NCBI GenBank assembly: GCA_035946615.1
Contig: DASYZB010000116.1
Coordinates: forward strand, 16,545-80,544
DNA: 64,000 nt
From: Verrucomicrobiia bacterium
Lineage (GTDB): Bacteria > Verrucomicrobiota > Verrucomicrobiia > Limisphaerales > UBA8199
Direction: 5' to 3'
Positions within the stretch are counted from its first letter, which is position 1. Each line of letters starts with the position of its first letter. Both the position numbers and the translations under genes were made by a program. Shown one piece after another: positions 11,570-20,931 of the stretch. Below the pieces are notes generated by a model, which did no database searches, had not been told where the DNA came from, and was given only the letters and a program-made list of their open reading frames with translations.

Positions 11570-13606
11570 TTAGGCCTGGATTGCCAGGGTGGTCTCCATC
11601 GGCAGGGAGATGCGGACCACGCCTGACTGCCCGGATTGCGGGGGGAGAATCTCCAGCTTGCCGTGGTGGGTCTCGATAATCTTGCGTGTAACGGTCAGGC
11701 CCAGACCCAAGCCCACCGTGCGCGTGCTGAAGAATGGGGCTGGGGCTTTTTGGACCGCTTCGGGGCTAAAACCGCTTCCGTTGTCCTGGACGTCGATCTG
11801 CAGCGCGGAAGCGCCATGGCCGTTGGAGTCGGTGCGCAAATGAACGCCGATTTTGGGTTCGGCAGGGTTGGCCTGAAGGGCGTTGAGCATCACCTCGGCC
11901 AGCGCGTGCTTTAAAGCCGCCCTGTCGCCGTTGAGGATAATGGGTTTGTTGGCATTATCGTAGCGGAGTTGGGCCGACTTGGCAGGCTGGTACTTGCAGG
12001 CCTCCTGGTAGGCCTCTTCGATGAGGGGCGCCAAAGGAAATGCTTCCTGTGAAACGAGGCTGTCGCGGGCCAGGAACCGCATCTGGTTGATCAGGCGCGT
12101 GACGCGTTTTACCCCATCGGCCAGGGCCAGGTCCAGCGAGGTGCGGAACTCAGGGTCCTTCCACTTATCGGCCAATAATTGTTGGTGAGTCGAAAGGGGC
12201 ACCATGGCATTGCCGATCTCATGGGTGAGGCGGTCTGCCATCGACTTTATCAAGCGCAGGTTGGCAGTCTCGACTTCGAGTTTGCGCAACTGCTCGCTTT
12301 GTGTCAGGTCCTCGGCCATCAACAAGGCGGAGGCGGGGAGGCCAGCTTGCTGGCGCTGGAAAGGGACGATATTGATGTGATAGACAGTGCCCCCGGCGCC
12401 CTGGGGCTCATATTTAAAGCCGGAGATGGCCGAGCCGGTTTTGAGGACCTGGTAAACCTTGGCGCCCAGGACCTGGGGCAGGTCGCTGAACTCGAGGTCG
12501 CTGCCCCGGCGGTCGGCTCTGGAGAAATACTTGCGCGCGGTTTTATTGGCATGGAGGATGGCCAGGTCGCGGCTGACGACGACGCAGGCGCTGCTGAGTT
12601 CGCGGAGAATCTCGGCCATCATTTCGTGATTGGCGGCCAATTGGTCGTGGAGCCAGATATTTTTGACGGCCAGGCCGAGTTGTTCGAGCAGGTGGAAAAT
12701 GAGTTCGAGCTCGGAATTGACCAGCGGCTCGCCGGTGATGCGCCCGTCAAAGACAGCGACCCCCAGGAGAGTCTCGCGGTCCAGAATGGGGACCGCCACC
12801 TGAGCGCCCAGCAACTCAAATTCCTTCTGCGCCTCAGGGTCGGAGCGGGCTTCTTCGCCGAAACGGCGCAGGATGCGTCCCAGCCGGAAGAGTTGACCTC
12901 CAATGCCGCCTTCGAGTGAGAGTTCGAAATGTTCGAGTAATCCGGGGGAGAGCCCCAGGGCGCAAGCGGCGCGCAAGCGGCGCGTTTCAGCCGGGCTGCC
13001 TACTGCGAAGGAGCTGGAGGGCTGACGCAGGAAGATGGCGGCGCGATTGACGCTCATGATTTCGCGCAGGAGCAGCAGGAACTGCTTGAGCATTGCCTCT
13101 GCATTGAGCGAGTGGGTAAGGATGGCGGAGAAATCGCGCAGAATGGTCAAGGTATGCGGGGCGCCGTAGAACAGGGAGGTGTCGGAAGTTTTCGGAGCTT
13201 CGGCGGGGGGCGATGGCCCGCGAGCCAAGGCGGGCCTCTCGGGGGTTGGAGCGGGCCAGAGCCGCTCGAGGAGCGCCGAGAGCATTCGGGCGCGCACCGG
13301 TTTTTTGAGGATATGGGCCACTCCTTGCAAGTAGGCCTCTTCCTCCCATTCCCATTGGCTGGCGCCGGTAAAGACCAGCAGGGGGCATTTGGGGGCGCGG
13401 CGGCGGAGCTTTTCCATGGGCCAGATGCCCTGGACACTGGTCAGTTCAACATCCAAGAGGCAGGCGTCACCCAGGCCGTGGACCAACAACGGCTCGGCCT
13501 CATCGAGGGTTGCGCGATGAATGACCCGGTAGCGTTCAGCATCCACTGCTGCGCGGACCGTTTCAGCGAAATCGGGATGGCCGGAGACGACCAGGAGAGT
13601 TCTCAT
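11570..13606 (-). CDS. sensor histidine kinase with N-terminal atypical receiver, GAF and PAS-like regions
   Basis: H-box 'LTHEIGNAMVPL'. ATPase motifs 'VMLNALQANP', 'VQDNGSGF', 'GLGLGLTVTRKIIETHHG'. The N-terminal CheY-like fold lacks the usual acidic pair ('VVSGHPD') but keeps 'LLDVEL' and 'KKP'. Confidence 0.85.
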   Translation of the reverse strand: MRTLLVVSGHPDFAETVRAAVDAERYRVIHRATLDEAEPLLVHGLGDACLLDVELTSVQGIWPMEKLRRRAPKCPLLVFTGASQWEWEEEAYLQGVAHILKKPVRARMLSALLERLWPAPTPERPALARGPSPPAEAPKTSDTSLFYGAPHTLTILRDFSAILTHSLNAEAMLKQFLLLLREIMSVNRAAIFLRQPSSSFAVGSPAETRRLRAACALGLSPGLLEHFELSLEGGIGGQLFRLGRILRRFGEEARSDPEAQKEFELLGAQVAVPILDRETLLGVAVFDGRITGEPLVNSELELIFHLLEQLGLAVKNIWLHDQLAANHEMMAEILRELSSACVVVSRDLAILHANKTARKYFSRADRRGSDLEFSDLPQVLGAKVYQVLKTGSAISGFKYEPQGAGGTVYHINIVPFQRQQAGLPASALLMAEDLTQSEQLRKLEVETANLRLIKSMADRLTHEIGNAMVPLSTHQQLLADKWKDPEFRTSLDLALADGVKRVTRLINQMRFLARDSLVSQEAFPLAPLIEEAYQEACKYQPAKSAQLRYDNANKPIILNGDRAALKHALAEVMLNALQANPAEPKIGVHLRTDSNGHGASALQIDVQDNGSGFSPEAVQKAPAPFFSTRTVGLGLGLTVTRKIIETHHGKLEILPPQSGQSGVVRISLPMETTLAIQA

Positions 13607-13898
13607 AGTGCAAGGCCCTGCTGCCCGGGTGGGGGCGAAGCGCAGTTGAGGTAATTGGCCAGAGGCACCATAGCCACAGTAAGGGGCATCCGCATCCCTG
13701 AGGCAATCTTTAGATTGCGGGCTGGAAGCGAGGTGCTGCCGGGTCGGGTCATTGTGCTCTGATCATCCATAGCGCCTGGTTTTCGTCAGACTTAACGTTG
13801 CGTGCCTTTGTAGCAGCGGCCCTGCTCCTATTCAACAACGGAGAATACTGACGGCCACTCTCGGACGAGGAGCGGACGGTTGTAAGGAAAACCCGAAG

Positions 13899-15167
13899 CT
13901 ACTCGGAGGAGATGAGATTTTCCCAAAGTTTATCGTTGAGGAGGGCTTTTTGGAGGAAATCGGTGTCGCTCTGGGGGATGGGGGGAACATGGCTGGGGCT
14001 GAGGGGCAGGCGCAGAGTGAAGGTGGTGCCCTGGCCGGGTTCGCTGTGGGCGTCGATGCGTCCGCCGTGGTGATGAACGATGAAGTAGCAGGCCATCAGA
14101 TGAATGCCATATTCCATGGGGCTGTCGGTGCGGACCACAAAGGGATCGAAGACCAGGCGGAGGGCTTCTTTTGGCAAGCCGGGTCCGTTATCGCTGACAC
14201 GGACCTGGATTTGTTGCTTATCGGGAAGATGGCCATTGAGCAGTTCGGCGGAGATGGTGACGCGCGCGCCGGGAGGCAAACTGGCCAGCTCATCTTTAAA
14301 GAGCAACTCAAACAATCGATAAAACTTAGGCTTATCGACACTCAGCATGGGGAGGGAGTCGGAGAGGTGGTTTTCAATGGTGATCTTCTTGGAGGCGAAT
14401 TCGTCCTTCAATTGTTCGAGGATTTGGGCCACCACGGCATGGAGGCGCACTTGATCGCCGAACTCGAATTTGGGCTGTTCGGAAGCAGACCAGAGGTCTT
14501 TGAGCATGTTGTTTATTTTTTCGATCTGGCCCTGGACGTTCTGGTAGTAATCCTTCCAGAAATCGGGGTTGCGCAGGCCCTCCATATCGAGCTTTTCCTC
14601 CTCCATTTTGGCTGGGGCGAGGTCGAGGAAGGTTTTGACGGCGACGAGGGCGTTGCGGATGTGATGGCTCAGGCCGGCGGCCAGGAGGCCCAGACTGACA
14701 ATCCGGTCGGCGATCATCATATTGTGGAGGACGGAGAGTTTTTCGCGCAGCAACTGGTCTCGCTCGCGCTGGACCAGGAAGAACTCGAGGCCGCGTTTGA
14801 GGGTGGTTTCGAGTTGAGGGGGGTCCCAGGGTTTGGTGACGTATTTGTAAATGGCGCCGGTATTGACAGCGGCGATGGCGGCGTCCATGTCGGCATAAGC
14901 GGTCGCGAGGATGCGGATGATGCGTGGTTCAAGCTGGCGTGCTCGTTCGAGGAGCCAGACGCCCTTTTCGCCCGGCATGCGCTGGTCGGTCATGAGCAGG
15001 CCGATGTCTGCGTGGTGTTGTTCGAGGATTTTAAGACCGTCCTGGGCGCTGGTGGCGGTGAACATGCGGAACTGGTCCTCGAAGGCGCGGACAAAGTTCT
15101 TGAGCGATTTCTCCTCGTCATCGACGTAGAGAATCGCAAATTTTTTGTAGTCGTAAAGGTTGTCCAT
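13899..15167 (-). CDS. response-regulator receiver fused to a histidine-kinase core (PhcR-like architecture)
   Basis: Receiver 'ILYVDDEEKSL...LLMTDQRMPGEKG...YKYVTKPWD'. Followed by H-box 'AAGLSHHIRNAL' and ATPase motifs 'VSDNGPGL', 'GQGTTFTLRLP'. Confidence 0.85.
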   Translation of the reverse strand: MDNLYDYKKFAILYVDDEEKSLKNFVRAFEDQFRMFTATSAQDGLKILEQHHADIGLLMTDQRMPGEKGVWLLERARQLEPRIIRILATAYADMDAAIAAVNTGAIYKYVTKPWDPPQLETTLKRGLEFFLVQRERDQLLREKLSVLHNMMIADRIVSLGLLAAGLSHHIRNALVAVKTFLDLAPAKMEEEKLDMEGLRNPDFWKDYYQNVQGQIEKINNMLKDLWSASEQPKFEFGDQVRLHAVVAQILEQLKDEFASKKITIENHLSDSLPMLSVDKPKFYRLFELLFKDELASLPPGARVTISAELLNGHLPDKQQIQVRVSDNGPGLPKEALRLVFDPFVVRTDSPMEYGIHLMACYFIVHHHGGRIDAHSEPGQGTTFTLRLPLSPSHVPPIPQSDTDFLQKALLNDKLWENLISSE

Positions 15168-15183
15168 AAGGAGTGGGTTTTAG

Positions 15184-15230
15184 TGGGATGGATTACACAC
15201 AGAGGGACCCCTCTGCGCTTCGGAAGGGGG
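15184..15230 (+). repeat. intergenic repeat, copy 1 (partner at 45550..45626)
   Basis: 'tgggatggattacacacagagggacccctct' matches 45550..45580 at 29 of 31 positions. Followed in both copies by a 'cttcggaagggg' hairpin motif. Confidence 0.75.
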
Positions 15231-15390
15231 TATCTGTTTAGCCCGCTCGCGCCGGCGCTTGGTAGCGCAGGTTCTAACCCTTGTCATTACCCACGTTTTT
15301 GGGATTGTGGCGCATGTCCCAGACTGCTCCGTACAGATGCGCTTAGTCATGCTTAGGTCGAAATTCAATTTGGCTTTGATCGATCTCATG

Positions 15391-18024
15391 TCATCCTTTG
15401 ATGGGAAACTCCAGTCTAAACTCTGAAAACTTCCCGGGTTCTGTTCGAACGTTAATCCGGCCGCCGGATTCCTGGACAATCCGGTAGCAGATGGCCAAGC
15501 CGAGGCCCATGCCCTGGCCGACATCTTTGGTGGTGTAGAAGGGGTCGAAAATCTTGTCGAGATGCTTGGCGTCGATACCGGTCCCGTTATCGCGGACCAC
15601 GAGGATGCTCTTACCGGGTTCAAGCAGGCCCTCGATCCAAATGGCAGGCTGCTCGTCTGCAAACTGCTTGCCTTTGAGGGCATCGAGGGAGTTTTGGAGC
15701 AGGTTCACCAGAACGTGGGTGAGCTTATTCTGGTTGGTGCAAATCCTATGGCCTGGCGGAAGGTTTTGGTGAATCTGGACCTTGTTGCGCCATTCGTTGC
15801 TCAAGAAGCGCAAGGAGGCGCGCACCACCTCGGCTACATCCACCTGGTCCTGGCTCTCGGTTTCGGGATGAGAAAAAGTGCGCAGGTCCGAGACGATATT
15901 CTTGACGCGCTTGATGCCTTCCTCGACGTCTTTGAGCACTTCTTCGTATTCTGGCCGCTGTTCGGGGGCGAGGTATTTGCCTTTGTTGCGCAGGGTGAAG
16001 AGTCCCGTTGTGGCAAAGTTGAGCGGGTTATTGATCTCATGGATAATGCCGGCGCTCATGCGGCCAAGGGAAGCCAGTTTTTCGGTTTGGACGAGTTGTG
16101 TTTCGGTGTCTTTGAGCTGCTCGATGGTGGTTTCGAGGACCTGGTTCTGCTTGGAGAGCTTGCGCTGGTATTGATAGGATTCAACGAGGTTCTTGATGCG
16201 CACGTGAAGCTCGGTTGTCGAGAAGGGCTTGGCCAGGAAATCACTGGCGCCTGCCGAGAGGGCGGCCAGCTTGGTTTCCTCATCCGCCCGGGCCGTGAGA
16301 AGGACAATCGGGATGCTTTGGGTTGAGGTATGCTCGCGGATTTCGCGGCAAGCCTGCAATCCATCTTTCTCGGGCATCATCATGTCCAGCAGGATAATGT
16401 CTGGAAGGAACTGGCAGGCCTTCTCGACCGCCTGCTGGCCATCGACCGCTTCAAGCACATGGTAGTGGGAGCTCAACTGCGATTTGAGGAACCGGAGCAT
16501 GTCGGGCTCGTCGTCTGCCACCAGGAGGGTCTGCTCATGACCGTTGCGGGCAAGCTCGATGGGTCGCAAGGAGGAGTTGACTGAGGTCAAGGCTGGGAAC
16601 AGCTCCGCCCGTCTGTAGAGATTGGCCAGCCACTCCTCGGATGCCACTGTGCTGGCCTTTTCGGATGGCTGATCCTCGTCCACCGAATCCTCATCGGCGC
16701 CTGCCTTCTTAACCTCATCCGCTTTCTCGTATGGGAGGCTCACCGTAAAGGTTGTGCCTTTGCCTTCCTGGCTTTGGACGGAGACGGCGCCGCCCTGGAT
16801 TTCGGCCAACTCTTTTACCAGGGCCAGGCCGATACCTGCGCCTTGAAATTTGCGCTTCGAGGAGCTGTCCGCCTGCCAAAAGCGATCGAACACATGAGGG
16901 AGGTTCTTTTGCGAGATTCCCATGCCGGTGTCCGCCACGGTGAGAACCAACTTCGAGTCCTGTCTTTCAGCCTTCAGCTCGACCCTCCCGCCAGAGGATG
17001 TGAATTTCAAGGCGTTGAACAAGAGGTTTAACACGATCTTTTCGAGCTTGTCACGGTCGGCCAGGACGACCCCCAGAACCTGATCGGCCTGTGTTTCCAG
17101 GCCAATGCGCTTATCATCGGCCACTTGGCGCGCCGCGCTAGCGAGGCCCTTGATTAGTTCGCTGATTTGCACCGGTTCCTTTTTAATTTCGATCCGGCCA
17201 GATTCCAGCCGAACCAAATCCAACAGGTCATTAATGAGCTTGAGCAGCCGCATGCCGTTGGAATGCATGGTGGCCAGCAGGTCTTTGGTTTGGGCATCCA
17301 GGTTGAAGCGCTGCAGCATTTTTTCCAGGGGGGCAATGAGCAATGTCAAGGGCGTGCGCAGCTCGTGGCTGATATTGGCGAAAAAGCGGCTTTTAATCTG
17401 ATCCAATTCCATCAGCTTGCGATTGGTCTCTTCCATGGCGCGCCGGCTTTTGTCGAGTTCCCATCGCAGTGTGAATTCCTGAAAGCGTTGGCGGGCGTTG
17501 CTCACGCTGCCCATCACAACGAACGCGGCGGTGAGAAACAGGAAGGTGGTGTTGTTGAGGATGTACTTGACCGGTTGTTGAACTGGCCGGGCAAAGGAAA
17601 CCAGCACGTACATGGCCAGCACAAAGATGGTGATGAAGAAATTCTGTCTGTAAGTCCATGGTGAAATCAAACCCATAGCCAGAAGGATGATGTTCAAGCC
17701 GGCGTAATAGGGCGAGAGCGGATCGGGGAGCGTATAGATCATCCAAAGAATCATCATCAACGGCCCCATAAACCAGGTAACCCCAAAGATTCGGCGGTGG
17801 CAGGGCCGCGGGCTCTTGAACCATGCCCACACCAGCAGCGTCACAATGCCGCAGAGCACGCGCAGCTTGAAGAAGGCCCACATTTTGTCCGGGTACATGT
17901 AGTAGTCCATGACCGAGCAAGACAAGTTGAGCGGAATCGAAACGATTGAGCCAAAGACCGCGTTGCGGATGTAATCGCGCTGATTTTGCTCCCAGTAGGC
18001 CCTTTGGATCTCTGGAGCGCTCAT
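15391..18024 (-). CDS. membrane-bound hybrid sensor kinase with two complete kinase cores flanking a receiver
   Basis: ORF 15391..18153. The ATG at 18024 overlaps the upstream TGA (ATGA). Domain order:
- ~6 TM helices
- 'FFANISHELRTPL' with 'DTGMGI...GAGIGLALV'
- receiver 'LLVADDEPDM...ILLDMMMPEKDG...FLAKPF'
- second core 'AGIIHEINNPL' with 'VRDNGTGI...GMGLGLAICY'. Confidence 0.85.
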   Translation of the reverse strand: MSAPEIQRAYWEQNQRDYIRNAVFGSIVSIPLNLSCSVMDYYMYPDKMWAFFKLRVLCGIVTLLVWAWFKSPRPCHRRIFGVTWFMGPLMMILWMIYTLPDPLSPYYAGLNIILLAMGLISPWTYRQNFFITIFVLAMYVLVSFARPVQQPVKYILNNTTFLFLTAAFVVMGSVSNARQRFQEFTLRWELDKSRRAMEETNRKLMELDQIKSRFFANISHELRTPLTLLIAPLEKMLQRFNLDAQTKDLLATMHSNGMRLLKLINDLLDLVRLESGRIEIKKEPVQISELIKGLASAARQVADDKRIGLETQADQVLGVVLADRDKLEKIVLNLLFNALKFTSSGGRVELKAERQDSKLVLTVADTGMGISQKNLPHVFDRFWQADSSSKRKFQGAGIGLALVKELAEIQGGAVSVQSQEGKGTTFTVSLPYEKADEVKKAGADEDSVDEDQPSEKASTVASEEWLANLYRRAELFPALTSVNSSLRPIELARNGHEQTLLVADDEPDMLRFLKSQLSSHYHVLEAVDGQQAVEKACQFLPDIILLDMMMPEKDGLQACREIREHTSTQSIPIVLLTARADEETKLAALSAGASDFLAKPFSTTELHVRIKNLVESYQYQRKLSKQNQVLETTIEQLKDTETQLVQTEKLASLGRMSAGIIHEINNPLNFATTGLFTLRNKGKYLAPEQRPEYEEVLKDVEEGIKRVKNIVSDLRTFSHPETESQDQVDVAEVVRASLRFLSNEWRNKVQIHQNLPPGHRICTNQNKLTHVLVNLLQNSLDALKGKQFADEQPAIWIEGLLEPGKSILVVRDNGTGIDAKHLDKIFDPFYTTKDVGQGMGLGLAICYRIVQESGGRINVRTEPGKFSEFRLEFPIKG

Positions 18025-19637
18025 AAAGGCTTGCGGACTTCCAGGAAAATATTTGTTCCGGTCGGCTCGGCCACCACTTTGCACTGGTTGGGTGAGACCT
18101 GCTCCGGAGCCAAAGCAGCGAGTTGCCTGGCATCGCGATAAATCAGAAACCATTCCAGAAAGTGCTCGATGAAGTTTCTGACGGGCATGTTTGGGGCAAA
18201 GTTGCCCACGGTCAACAACCCGCCTGGACGCAAGTGGTCGTAGAGGTACGTATTGACGGCTTTGACAACACGATCATTGAGGTAGTCGTAGAGGCCAGAG
18301 CAATAAATCAGGTCATAGCCCTCCTCGCCCGCAACCGGTTTGCCGTTGGCTTTCAACATTTGGTGGACCGATTTCTTGACCAGGGCTACTGAAGTCTTGA
18401 GATGATGTCTCTTTTTGACATGCTCCATTCGGGCGCCGGCATATCCCAAGGTTTCCGAATCAAAATCCAACAGATGAAACTCCGCGCAATCGGCCAGCGG
18501 ATGTCCAGAGAGAAAATTCTCCACCTCTCGGGCGGGGCCGCAGGCGATATTGTAAATCCTTGCTGTTCGTCCGAGTCTCGCAATCCGGCAGGTTTCCTCA
18601 GTGATCTTGCCGCAGAGATAATCGGCGCGGTTTCTCACCGCCTGCGGTCCAATCTGATCGAGCAAATAGGCGTTGGTTAGTTTAGCGTAAAGCGAGTTTC
18701 CCTCCAGACCGTTGCGAAAAATCATGTTCATCATTTCGTAATCACCTGCGTAGCCCAGTGGCTTAGCGTACGTGCGGTGAATGAAGGGGGCGCACAGCAA
18801 GTGAGGGTGGAGTTGACGCTGGCCAAAAGCGCGATGGGCCGCCTGGAAATCGGGTTCGATCCTGGCGCATATCGCCTCAAAACGCTCAAAGATGTTGCCC
18901 AGGGTAGAAGCCACCTGGCTTCGCAACCCATGCGCGATGTCCGACTCAATTCTGGTCCGGTCCATAGACGCGGAGGCTTGGAGAGTCAGTTCCACCTGTT
19001 CGAGCCATAAACGCAAGCTGGATAGAAATGTTTGGAGATCGGCGATGACGACCTTGTAATCATGATTTAGCCGATAAAACTTTTGCCAGCACTTCAGGAA
19101 CTCCCCGAAGCCATTTAAATAAATCTCCTCCGGGTCGTGGAGCGCAAGGGAGCCCCACCCTGGCAGCGGTGTAGGCAGAGCTGCTTCGCATGCTGTGGCC
19201 GTGCCGGTATTGACCAGGCTGCTGACGACCGCTTTGCCACTGTAAACCGGGCGCTTGCCAGCAAGTATTTCGAAGTCATTTAACACCTCCGATACTCTGA
19301 GAACAATTCCCGGACCGTACATCTCGAACGAGACGGAGTGGGGTGTAAGGCGCGCGACAGTTGCCTGGCCTTCGATGCCACTGCTGGTCTTGAAAGTCAC
19401 CGCACTGGCCAGGGGTATCGATGTCGTCGCCATCGGCAGATCGGAGATTTCTTGCATGCGTGCAACCATTTGCGCAATAACCGTGCCTAAATCAGGCCGA
19501 AACCTGAGCCATCCAGATTCGTTGGTGTATAGGAAACCAAAAGTCTCCCGCTGATCCAAGCTCCAATGACGCGCGGCCACGGTACGCCCCCATGGGCAAC
19601 ACAGTTGGTGCGGTAGTTGCTCTTGTAGCAGAATCAT
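18021..19637 (-). CDS. class I SAM-dependent methyltransferase with N-terminal beta-rich (PilZ-like) region; PhcB-like
   Basis: SAM motif I 'IYNIACGPAREV', post-I 'HLLDFD', and 'YDLIYCSGLYDYLNDRV...LRPGGLLTVGNF'. First gene of the kinase operon. Confidence 0.75.
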   Translation of the reverse strand: MILLQEQLPHQLCCPWGRTVAARHWSLDQRETFGFLYTNESGWLRFRPDLGTVIAQMVARMQEISDLPMATTSIPLASAVTFKTSSGIEGQATVARLTPHSVSFEMYGPGIVLRVSEVLNDFEILAGKRPVYSGKAVVSSLVNTGTATACEAALPTPLPGWGSLALHDPEEIYLNGFGEFLKCWQKFYRLNHDYKVVIADLQTFLSSLRLWLEQVELTLQASASMDRTRIESDIAHGLRSQVASTLGNIFERFEAICARIEPDFQAAHRAFGQRQLHPHLLCAPFIHRTYAKPLGYAGDYEMMNMIFRNGLEGNSLYAKLTNAYLLDQIGPQAVRNRADYLCGKITEETCRIARLGRTARIYNIACGPAREVENFLSGHPLADCAEFHLLDFDSETLGYAGARMEHVKKRHHLKTSVALVKKSVHQMLKANGKPVAGEEGYDLIYCSGLYDYLNDRVVKAVNTYLYDHLRPGGLLTVGNFAPNMPVRNFIEHFLEWFLIYRDARQLAALAPEQVSPNQCKVVAEPTGTNIFLEVRKPL

Positions 19638-19701
19638 CGCCCGCGCAGCCTTTCTGCGGGTTGGTTTCAGGACACTGTAATCTAAATAAAAGACATAAAT
19701 T

Positions 19702-20931
19702 ATGGCAAATACACCGAAGTTCGCGCGGATTCGGCTTAGCCATGCGCGATTAAATCAACTGTTTGTGGTTTTGGTCCTGGGCCTGAGTCAATGGCCGAGG
19801 GAGTGTTTGGCGATCGGTTCGCGGATCCCCAACCAGGATGCCGAGGCGATTGGGCGTGGCAACGCATTCGTTGCCACAGCGGATGATCCTGCGGCCATCT
19901 ATTATAACCCGGCCGGAATCACCCAACTGGACGGCCAGAACGTCCAAGTGGGATCGCTCTTTTACCTCGGCATCGATGCGGATTACAAATCGCCCTCGGG
20001 GCAGGTCACGCAGAATAAACGAAACATCATTCCCGTACCGCAACTGGATTATGCTTTTACGCCCAAGGGCCAGCCGTTTTCCTTCGGATTGGGGGTTTAC
20101 GCCCCGTTCGGGTTGGGAATGGAATGGCCGGATAGCGCGCCGTTCCGCAGCGCGGGGCTCAAGGCCGATCTGACCTACCTGACCATCAATCCGGTTGTTG
20201 CTTGGCGCCCACTCTCCACGCTCTCTATCGCGGTGGGCCCGACGTTCAATTATTCGCAGGCGGAATTGGACCAGGGCATCCTGGTGTCTCCCTACCAGCT
20301 TAAGTTCAAAGGCCGGGATTGGGCTTACGGTTTCAATGCCGGTATTTTGTGGCAACCGCATGCCATGTGGTCGTTCGGCGCAAAATACTTTAGCGCGACC
20401 ACCATGGATTATAACGGAACCGCCTCTTTCAATCCGGCGTCCCCTTTCCTGCCCCCGCCCGCATCGACCAAAACTCACCTTGATTTCCCTCAGATGGTTA
20501 GCGGTGGAGTTTCTTTCCGCCCAACGACCAATTGGAATTTCGAGGTGGATATCGATTGGACAGATTGGGACAGAGTCAAGAGCGCGGTCATCGATGGGGT
20601 TGGCGCTCTGCCGTTGAATTGGCAGTCCAGTTTCTTCTATGAATTTGGCGTCACGCGCCAGCTTGGATGCGGTTATTACGTCAGCGCAGGTTATTTTTAC
20701 AGTGAAGCCTCCACCCCGGACCAGTATTATACGCCTCTGGTGCCGGACACGAACCTGCATGTCGGCAGCCTTGGAGTTGGGCATCGCGGGCAGCATTTCG
20801 ATTGGGCTTTGGCGGGCCAGATCATCGGCGGAGCGTACCGCAACGTGCAAGGATCGGTGAACCCATCCGTCAACGGCAGCTATCGCCTTTTTACCCCAAC
20901 GGTCTCCTTTAGTGTCGGTTATCATTTTTAA
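19702..20931 (+). CDS. outer-membrane transport protein, OMPP1/FadL/TodX family
   Basis: 'QDAEAIGRGNAFVATADDPAAIYYNPAGI' is the conserved FadL N-terminal hatch motif. Alternating beta-strand pattern with a C-terminal 'VSFSVGYHF'. Confidence 0.8.
   Translation: MANTPKFARIRLSHARLNQLFVVLVLGLSQWPRECLAIGSRIPNQDAEAIGRGNAFVATADDPAAIYYNPAGITQLDGQNVQVGSLFYLGIDADYKSPSGQVTQNKRNIIPVPQLDYAFTPKGQPFSFGLGVYAPFGLGMEWPDSAPFRSAGLKADLTYLTINPVVAWRPLSTLSIAVGPTFNYSQAELDQGILVSPYQLKFKGRDWAYGFNAGILWQPHAMWSFGAKYFSATTMDYNGTASFNPASPFLPPPASTKTHLDFPQMVSGGVSFRPTTNWNFEVDIDWTDWDRVKSAVIDGVGALPLNWQSSFFYEFGVTRQLGCGYYVSAGYFYSEASTPDQYYTPLVPDTNLHVGSLGVGHRGQHFDWALAGQIIGGAYRNVQGSVNPSVNGSYRLFTPTVSFSVGYHF

Follow-up and report, generated by a model that had tools for sequence, protein, structure and literature searches.

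A Phc-like locus with a putative lipid-ester signaling role in a Verrucomicrobiia bacterium

The stretch of DNA analyzed here (the window) spans 64,000 nucleotides of contig DASYZB010000116.1 from a Verrucomicrobiia bacterium. At positions 11570-20931 it carries four co-directional genes, encoding a methyltransferase, a membrane hybrid kinase (HK1), a receiver-kinase protein and a third kinase, together with a divergent gene for a FadL-family outer-membrane channel. We hold this locus to be related by descent, though distantly, to the phcBSR(Q) operon of Ralstonia and Cupriavidus and judge, with moderate confidence, that it constitutes a signaling system built on a lipid ester that the cell itself produces. 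The parts of this view differ in strength. Homology of the locus to the Phc genes is very probable; the proposed signaling function, which the sequence leads us to favor, is likely to a lesser degree.

In the Phc system, PhcB is the synthase of 3-hydroxypalmitic or 3-hydroxymyristic acid methyl ester (3-OH PAME/MAME), PhcS is the sensor kinase, and PhcR and PhcQ are receivers. We know of no studies of Phc signaling outside Ralstonia and Cupriavidus, nor of any characterized quorum-sensing system in the Verrucomicrobiota. Literature searches for a link between phcB and Verrucomicrobia, or for the sensor domain MASE8, returned nothing relevant, and the only earlier recognition that we found is an automatic product name assigned by the Joint Genome Institute (JGI).

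The original prediction for this DNA described the five genes and likened their logic to that of the phc operon. Open reading frames and Pfam domain content agree with that description, and the analogy turns out to be one of homology and not just of common logic: the sensor is of the PhcS type and the receiver-kinase protein aligns with PhcR over its full length. The features of the locus are as follows.

18021..19457, minus strand: PhcB-family methyltransferase gene, 478 amino acids; the longest open reading frame reaches 19637 (open reading frame list, Pfam)
15391..18024, minus strand: HK1, membrane hybrid kinase, 877 amino acids from the ATGA start; open reading frame 15391-18153 (Pfam)
13899..15167, minus strand: PhcR-like REC-HisKA-HATPase protein, 422 amino acids (Pfam)
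11570..13606, minus strand: third kinase, REC(atypical)-GAF-PAS-HisKA-HATPase, 678 amino acids (Pfam)
19702..20931, plus strand: FadL/TodX-family outer-membrane channel (Toluene_X/FadL, Pfam)
19458..19701, no strand: divergent intergenic region between the FadL and methyltransferase genes, with presumed promoters; its length follows from the methyltransferase start at M61

The methyltransferase is a PhcB homolog

BLASTP aligns the methyltransferase with PhcB of Ralstonia sp. R-29 at 37.6% identity over 457 amino acids (E 9e-105), collinearly between residues 19-473 of the former and 10-460 of the latter, and with PhcB of Cupriavidus necator at 34.6% identity (E 5e-96). An alignment of eight sequences that includes a PhcB ortholog (A1) has 75 invariant columns, which include the motifs KPLGYAGDY, CGPAxE, YCxGLxDYL, PGG and EWxLxYR and the S-adenosylmethionine-binding loop. 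The original prediction had raised the possibility that the enzyme would group with a family other than PhcB. Such a grouping was tested and is not what the collinear, full-length homology and the invariant columns show; by homology, the methyltransferase belongs to the PhcB family. Most named homologs carry the JGI product name '3-hydroxypalmitic acid methyl ester biosynthesis protein', which we take to be the KEGG wording for phcB. The Pfam models Methyltransf_12, Methyltransf_20 and Methyltransf_25 match the C-terminal core; only Methyltransf_20 ('Putative methyltransferase') passes its cut-off, and barely (24 versus 21 bits), and no NCBIfam family matches the protein at E<=0.01.

An AlphaFold2 model (mean predicted local distance difference test score, pLDDT, of 86) places a helical region, residues 109-293, between two domains.

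19179..19409, minus strand: N-terminal six-stranded beta-barrel, residues 17-93 (AlphaFold2)
18033..18563, minus strand: Rossmann-fold class I core, residues 299-475 (Pfam, AlphaFold2)

The N-terminal beta-rich domain had been regarded as an extra feature of this enzyme. That claim fails: PhcB has the same domain, and because the alignments cover it (A1, and BLASTP from PhcB residue 10), it is PhcB architecture and not an addition. When the barrel is modeled alone, its best Foldseek matches are PilZ domains (2rde, YcgR, BcsA, MrkH, Alg44), all of them weak (E 7e-3 to 6e-2; TM-score about 0.55 and root-mean-square deviation 2.1-2.5 Å over about 80 residues). Pfam detects no PilZ domain in the methyltransferase, and the cyclic di-GMP (c-di-GMP) motifs RxxxR and [DN]xSxxG are absent from it and from both PhcB sequences. 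Across the methyltransferase family, both patterns occur within the first 100 residues in just 3 of 65 members.

How large is this family? A search of 5.8 billion proteins gave 2570 methyltransferase homologs among the scored candidates, and when 1.84 billion cluster representatives were searched exhaustively, 4664 matched at E<=1e-3. At E<=1e-30 the PhcB family comprises 677 clusters (50% identity). Among the best 150 representatives and the cluster members fetched with them, only cluster P0195 is close to the Ralstonia/Cupriavidus PhcB (55-57% identity), and the median identity to full-length representatives is 35% for Ralstonia PhcB and likewise 35% for the window methyltransferase. A genome scan seeded with Paraburkholderia PhcB returned as its best 80 loci Burkholderiales throughout, including Ralstonia and Cupriavidus necator. 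The Ralstonia/Cupriavidus reference loci have the order phcB-phcS-phcR-phcQ, with products of 464, 447, about 375-384 and 339 amino acids, and in Ralstonia phcB and phcS directly abut.

A plasmid search recovered a full-length homolog in Paraburkholderia graminis, followed by a 445-amino-acid kinase and two receivers. The Rhizobium plasmid proteins found by tblastn match by the methyltransferase half only and were set aside as a related shorter family. Methyltransferases of about 280 amino acids, about 31% identical and confined to the catalytic half, occur on about 126 Rhizobium plasmids and on a plasmid of Pseudanabaena sp. PCC 7367, where the gene (L002, 5971-8590) adjoins a HAMP kinase and a receiver; these plasmid enzymes may be a related, reduced family. 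A homolog of 64% identity, P0017, is labeled 'Candidatus Nitrosotalea sp.', an archaeon. This label is probably a binning error in a metagenome-assembled genome (MAG) and not a sign of an archaeal Phc system.

A PhcS-type kinase with an inserted kinase-receiver unit

HK1 had been described as a hybrid kinase with six transmembrane helices. It is a hybrid kinase, but by Pfam two complete kinase modules surround its receiver, not one. Six hydrophobic helices can be read from the sequence of the first 175 residues; hydropathy in a 19-residue window has five peaks, the first helix (residues 22-45) being weaker. The parts of the protein are:

17434..18012, minus strand: six-helix membrane sensor domain, residues 5-197 (PhcS profile)
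16726..17394, minus strand: kinase module 1, classical HisKA plus HATPase, H220 (Pfam HisKA, HATPase_c)
16195..16524, minus strand: internal receiver, D547 (Pfam Response_reg, 99 bits)
15403..16182, minus strand: kinase module 2, HEINNP type, H662 (36% identity to the PhcS core)

Both ends of HK1 are related to PhcS. A sensor profile of 205 positions, built from the N-termini of 78 PhcS proteins, all of them from Burkholderiales, matches the HK1 sensor from profile position 9 to 203 with 92.3 bits (E 7e-28). When the HK1 segment is shuffled 500 times, no score against the same profile exceeds about 6 bits. At the other end, BLASTP aligns HK1 615-874 with PhcS 188-444 at 36% identity (E 2e-49), and through the common HEINNP motif H662 of HK1 corresponds to H235 of PhcS from Ralstonia sp. 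R-29. MASE8 (PF20968) is the precomputed Pfam label of this sensor domain on HK1 homologs; our own Pfam scan (E<=1) reported it neither for HK1 nor for Ralstonia PhcS. With nothing but the HK1 sensor domain as query, most of the proteins recovered were fragments that bear generic names.

Between sensor and PhcS-type core lie about 400 residues of HisKA-HATPase-REC. By sequence reading, module 1 has intact H, N, G1, F and G2 boxes, and the receiver retains the DD pair, D547, Thr and Lys. Was this unit inserted in HK1 or lost elsewhere? A metagenomic locus, L090 (4090-13259), answers the question, because it pairs the same downstream proteins with a canonical PhcS-like sensor kinase of 453 amino acids, and the core of that kinase and HK1 module 2 agree at 70% identity; its receiver-kinase and REC-GAF kinase are 66% and 63% identical to those of the window. 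By this comparison of sequences, HK1 is a kinase of the PhcS type whose linker has received an insertion of about 400 residues. L090, the 'before insertion' counterpart of HK1, also contains two FadL genes and a GDSL lipase gene. HK1 orthologs of 887-956 amino acids follow the methyltransferase in L003, L004, L005, L086, L088 and L092, and the copy in L087 has 801 amino acids and is cut by the contig end. Canonical single-core PhcS-like kinases are found in L090 (453 amino acids) and L089 (460 amino acids).

The PhcR-like protein and the third kinase

Residues 12-388 of the 422-amino-acid protein align with residues 27-382 of C. necator PhcR at 27% identity (E 9e-39), a full-length match, and Pfam finds REC, HisKA and HATPase domains in both. 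Its REC domain and linker are 39-42% identical to residues 13-214 of PhcQ. Orthologs with 63-79% identity are present in L003, L005, L086, L090 and L092. The protein had been predicted to be a receiver fused to a kinase-like output; D61 and H168 are kept, but the N-box and G2 box are degenerate. In all four full-length orthologs aligned (window, L003, L005, L086) the N-box Asn is replaced by Asp (LLFKDE) and the G2 box has decayed (EYGIHLM); in the same alignment PhcR itself retains both the N-box Asn and the G2 box. Given the conserved H168 and the degenerate ATP site, the sequence suggests a role in phosphotransfer or as a phosphatase rather than as an autokinase. A C-terminal tail of about 35 residues (window 13899-14003; consensus DFLxKALLNDxLWExL) is present in four of four aligned Verrucomicrobial orthologs and absent from PhcR, PhcS and HK1.

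The 64-kb window encodes just three REC proteins, and a separate PhcQ, in which REC is joined to the C-terminal domain typical of that regulator, is not among them. PhcQ itself (for example L085, 11928-12947) aligns with the REC-kinases through the linker helix and the phosphoacceptor and catalytic regions, without the His and without the ATP-binding motifs. This pattern suggests that PhcQ may be a decayed REC-kinase.

The third kinase had been credited with an atypical receiver, and its sequence bears this out: the acidic DD pair is changed to SG, and D52, Thr and Lys are retained. GAF and PAS domains follow, and then an intact kinase with H462. Orthologs with 63% identity occupy the same position in L005, L086 and L090, and the locus JGI 3300047160 has a 679-amino-acid REC-GAF-HATPase gene there. 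L003, L088, L089 and L092 lack this kinase, and the Phc system has no counterpart of it.

Conservation of gene order

We compared the window with ten other loci from outside the Burkholderiales: L003, L004, JGI 3300047160, L005, L086, L087, L088, L089, L090 and L092. L004 and JGI 3300047160 share the methyltransferase protein P0027 and so are not fully independent, and two contigs end inside genes, L087 within the kinase and L004 within the REC gene. All ten have the order methyltransferase, MASE8 kinase, REC-kinase. Conservation of the methyltransferase-kinase linkage in relatives, on which the original prediction had partly staked its analogy, is thus complete in this set. The methyltransferase and kinase genes share 1-4 bp in five loci; in four the gap between them does not exceed about 30 bp, and L089 has a 62-bp overlap of the genes as called. 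Since the order is kept in independent contigs although identity to the window methyltransferase is just 31-66%, it is not due to chance.

The components of the locus diverge at different rates. Between the window and L090, identity is 44% for the methyltransferase and 31% for the sensor, against 72%, 67% and 63% for the relay parts; among Ralstonia species (L077-L084 versus L085), PhcB and PhcS are about 72% identical and PhcR and PhcQ 91-94%. Faster divergence of synthase and sensor than of the relay would fit co-diversifying signal-receptor pairs, a pattern that we regard as suggestive only.

One carrier is a cultured organism, Verrucomicrobium spinosum DSM 4136 (GCA_000172155.1), whose cluster lies at L088 10001-18523. 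Its PhcB-like enzyme (WP_009961516.1, 668 amino acids) is fused to an N-terminal receiver and annotated only as 'response regulator'; downstream are a 956-amino-acid HK1, a 414-amino-acid REC-kinase and a PAS-kinase-REC protein, and no FadL gene lies within 10 kb. The receiver-enzyme fusion suggests that the phosphorelay could feed back directly on signal synthesis. L089 (8405-14625) has the order FadL (divergent), PhcB-like enzyme, 460-amino-acid PhcS-like kinase, 422-amino-acid REC protein and 136-amino-acid PilZ protein. Its kinase matches Ralstonia PhcS over the full length at 37% identity (E 2e-96), and its enzyme occurs in 94 blocks of the searched collection, the longest contig measuring 5.8 Mb.

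The FadL channel and lipid-related neighbors

The divergent gene encodes a FadL-family protein that matches Toluene_X (PF03349) with 145.9 bits against a cut-off of 29.7, over profile positions 10-368 of 421. A signal peptide is present, as is a hatch motif at the N-terminus. Assignment to the E. coli FadL equivalog of NCBIfam fails (49.4 versus 585 bits). A FadL gene is adjacent in seven of the ten other loci, divergent in six and co-directional in L005. Orthologs with 37-74% identity adjoin the methyltransferase in L003, L004, L005, L086 and L087, and the relatives in L089 and L090 are 33% and 40% identical; the contig of L092 begins just upstream of the methyltransferase. Among about 79 Burkholderiales phcBSRQ loci, a FadL gene lies within 8 kb in only one, a Methylotenera MAG (L063, from about 12929 onward), in which the homolog is just downstream of phcQ and 25% identical to the window FadL. 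The FadL linkage is a feature of this branch and not of Ralstonia, which is a caveat on the analogy with phc.

The gene divergent from the methyltransferase in L086 (3908-8883) encodes a fatty-acid desaturase; just past it come two genes for FadL and one for a GDSL lipase, and a fatty-acid hydroxylase fragment is found at the edge of the locus. The signal in this lineage may be a modified acyl chain.

Gene starts, transcription signals and flanking genes

The ATGA at 18021-18024, in which the methyltransferase stop overlaps the HK1 start, is present in the sequence as described in the original prediction. At the other end of the methyltransferase gene, the likeliest start is M61 of the long open reading frame (19457), since the 100%-identical NCBI protein P0001 and most homologs have about 478 amino acids. 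An exact look-up of P0001 gave no record. From this start it follows that the gap to the FadL gene is about 244 bp. The divergence of FadL from the methyltransferase gene thus stands, and the 64-bp spacing originally proposed for it does not.

Scans of the region for promoters and terminators gave matches at chance level only. A weak sigma-70-like match on the minus strand, 19708-19679, is no commoner than chance. A GC-rich hairpin followed by a T-run lies over the stop codon of the REC-kinase gene (window 13892-13907, minus strand), and 292 bp separate this gene from that of the third kinase. The hairpin may be an internal terminator, with the last gene separately transcribed; terminator-like matches of this kind occur at chance frequency.

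As predicted, no DNA-binding domain was found in the locus or its flanks (Pfam, flank survey). Receiver and kinase profiles built from the locus detected no other REC or kinase open reading frame in the 64-kb window. The flanking genes are unrelated in function: a glycosyltransferase, a lectin-like protein, a solute symporter and hypotheticals. Genes for beta-oxidation or fatty-acid activation are absent from the locus.

Proposed mechanism and alternative explanations

How might such a system operate? The methyltransferase would make the methyl ester of a fatty-acid-like carboxylate, perhaps of a 3-hydroxy fatty acid, and the FadL channel would let this hydrophobic ester cross the outer membrane. 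The six-helix domain of HK1 would sense the ester within the inner membrane, whereupon module 1 (H220) could phosphorylate the HK1 receiver (D547), which could in turn switch on the PhcS-type module 2 (H662) in the manner of LvrB. The phosphoryl group might then move to the D61 receiver of the PhcR-like protein, and the REC-GAF-PAS kinase might add a further tier or a second input. The final output would be encoded elsewhere in the genome.

Several observations weigh against this scheme. At 35-38% identity, the substrate and product of the enzyme could differ from those of PhcB. Foldseek with the full model finds only generic small-molecule O-methyltransferases and offers no clue to the substrate (the best match, 3ocj, is a Bordetella protein of unknown function), and a PDB sequence search found no match for any family member. 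FadL channels are best known for nutrient uptake. Membrane domains often evolve fast, which weakens the argument from the divergence of synthase and sensor. The order of phosphotransfer is proposed solely from gene order and domain logic. No output regulator was found in the 64-kb window, where a PhcA-like LysR protein was not searched for; in Ralstonia phcA is not known to be linked to phcBSRQ, which would make its absence from the locus uninformative. Even in Ralstonia, deletion of phcS alone does not abolish quorum sensing (PMC13532016).

Could the locus instead sense or handle lipids from outside, with FadL importing them, the kinase sensing them and the methyltransferase esterifying them for detoxification, storage or metabolism? 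The FadL family is classically one of uptake channels, a secreted product of the methyltransferase is putative only, and lipid genes are found nearby in relatives (a GDSL lipase, a fatty-acid desaturase and a second FadL near L086; a lipase and a second FadL near L090). Against this, the enzyme and sensor are homologous to a characterized synthase-receptor pair, their genes share 1-4 bp or are no more than about 30 bp apart in nine of the ten loci and abut in Ralstonia, the locus is devoid of beta-oxidation and fatty-acid activation genes, and the receiver-enzyme fusion of V. spinosum suits feedback on a signal better than bulk metabolism. We consider handling of outside lipids unlikely. Far less probable in our estimation is a methyltransferase that acts inside the pathway, by CheR-like methylation of a kinase or under PilZ-like second-messenger control, with no diffusible signal. 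The PilZ matches of the N-terminal barrel, a faint CheR-family match on the window protein (E 0.08), precomputed CheR labels on two homologs and the stand-alone PilZ gene downstream in L089 all point that way; yet the CheR match is far under threshold (12.8 versus 27 bits), the c-di-GMP motifs are missing from both the window protein and PhcB, the fold resembles that of small-molecule O-methyltransferases, and the characterized homolog PhcB makes 3-OH PAME or MAME (PMC13532016).

There remains the view that this is an ordinary two-component cluster to which the methyltransferase and porin genes are neighbors by accident, with no link in function. Histidine kinases are common, and all three kinase proteins score high with generic kinase families of NCBIfam. 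However, gene order is kept though the methyltransferases have diverged to 31-66% identity, the start/stop overlap is conserved and the sensor is specifically of the PhcS type. The synteny and homology results refute such a coincidence, and we assign it almost no probability.

Implications

The Phc signaling family probably reaches far beyond the plant pathogens in which it has been studied. We tentatively go further and suggest, as a possibility that falls somewhat short of probable, that Phc-type lipid-ester signaling is a large, cross-phylum family of autoinducer systems in which Ralstonia is one small branch and the Verrucomicrobia form a distinct one. What would follow if these proposals are true? 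The Verrucomicrobial branch would have a dedicated outer-membrane signal channel and a new design of sensor kinase, with a complete kinase-receiver unit inserted upstream of a PhcS-type core, as well as a cascade in which as many as three kinases are under receiver control. Many private signal dialects would arise as synthase and sensor diversify together. Should these loci make and sense lipid esters, soil and water bacteria would possess a whole class of cell-cell signals that has escaped study.

The cultured carrier V. spinosum DSM 4136 makes testing at the bench possible. The canonical and inserted kinase variants, as in L090 versus the window, constitute a natural experiment on the wiring of receiver-controlled kinases, and PhcQ as a decayed REC-kinase may help to explain how signals pass among PhcS, PhcR and PhcQ in Ralstonia.

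Comparison with known systems

The Leptospira Lvr phosphorelay pairs a hybrid kinase, LvrA, with a Rec-controlled kinase, LvrB, which phosphorylates LvrC. Its components are the best NCBIfam match of HK1 (LvrA) and among the best of the REC-kinase (LvrB), and in both systems successive kinase domains come under receiver control and DNA-binding domains are lacking. The similarity is limited to generic domains, however. Membership in the Lvr families NF047465 and NF047466 was considered and rejected, as the scores are 318.3 versus 1200 bits and 65.3 versus 500 bits and the Lvr proteins are cytoplasmic. They have no membrane sensor, and the Lvr paper mentions no methyltransferase (PMC5863495). 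As a mechanistic analogy only, Lvr is instructive at the level of domains: structures of LvrB provide a mechanism by which the receiver, once phosphorylated, frees the catalytic domain of this Rec-controlled kinase (PMC13269768), as we propose for the D547 receiver and module 2.

In Sinorhizobium, a FadL-family channel is likewise tied to a hydrophobic quorum-sensing signal: FadL is reported to affect signaling by long-chain acyl-homoserine lactones (PMC9938287). The signal there belongs to the acyl-homoserine lactones and its receptor is of the LuxR type, whereas in the window FadL is linked to the putative signal by genomic position only.

The closest counterpart is the Phc system itself, in whose model PhcB makes 3-OH PAME or MAME and PhcS senses it (PMC13532016). 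The locus shares with it full-length homology of the synthase, the N-terminal beta domain included, a six-helix sensor domain, a HEINNP-type kinase core and a homologous REC-kinase-like protein. Gene order is the same, synthase and sensor genes abut or overlap, the operon is free of DNA-binding domains, and synthase and sensor diverge faster than the relay. In contrast, identity is just 27-38% and the host belongs to another phylum. Two further differences are caveats to the comparison: HK1 has 877 amino acids with a HisKA-HATPase-REC insertion, whereas PhcS (about 445 amino acids) joins its sensor directly to one core, and the window is without a PhcQ gene, the receiver of its PhcR-like protein being closest to that of PhcQ. 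The N-box and G2 box, intact in PhcR, are degenerate in the PhcR-like protein, and the window adds a REC-GAF-PAS kinase and a linked FadL channel. Relative to phcBSR, then, what is new in the Verrucomicrobial locus is the inserted kinase unit, the linked FadL gene, the third kinase and the degenerate ATP site of the PhcR-like protein.

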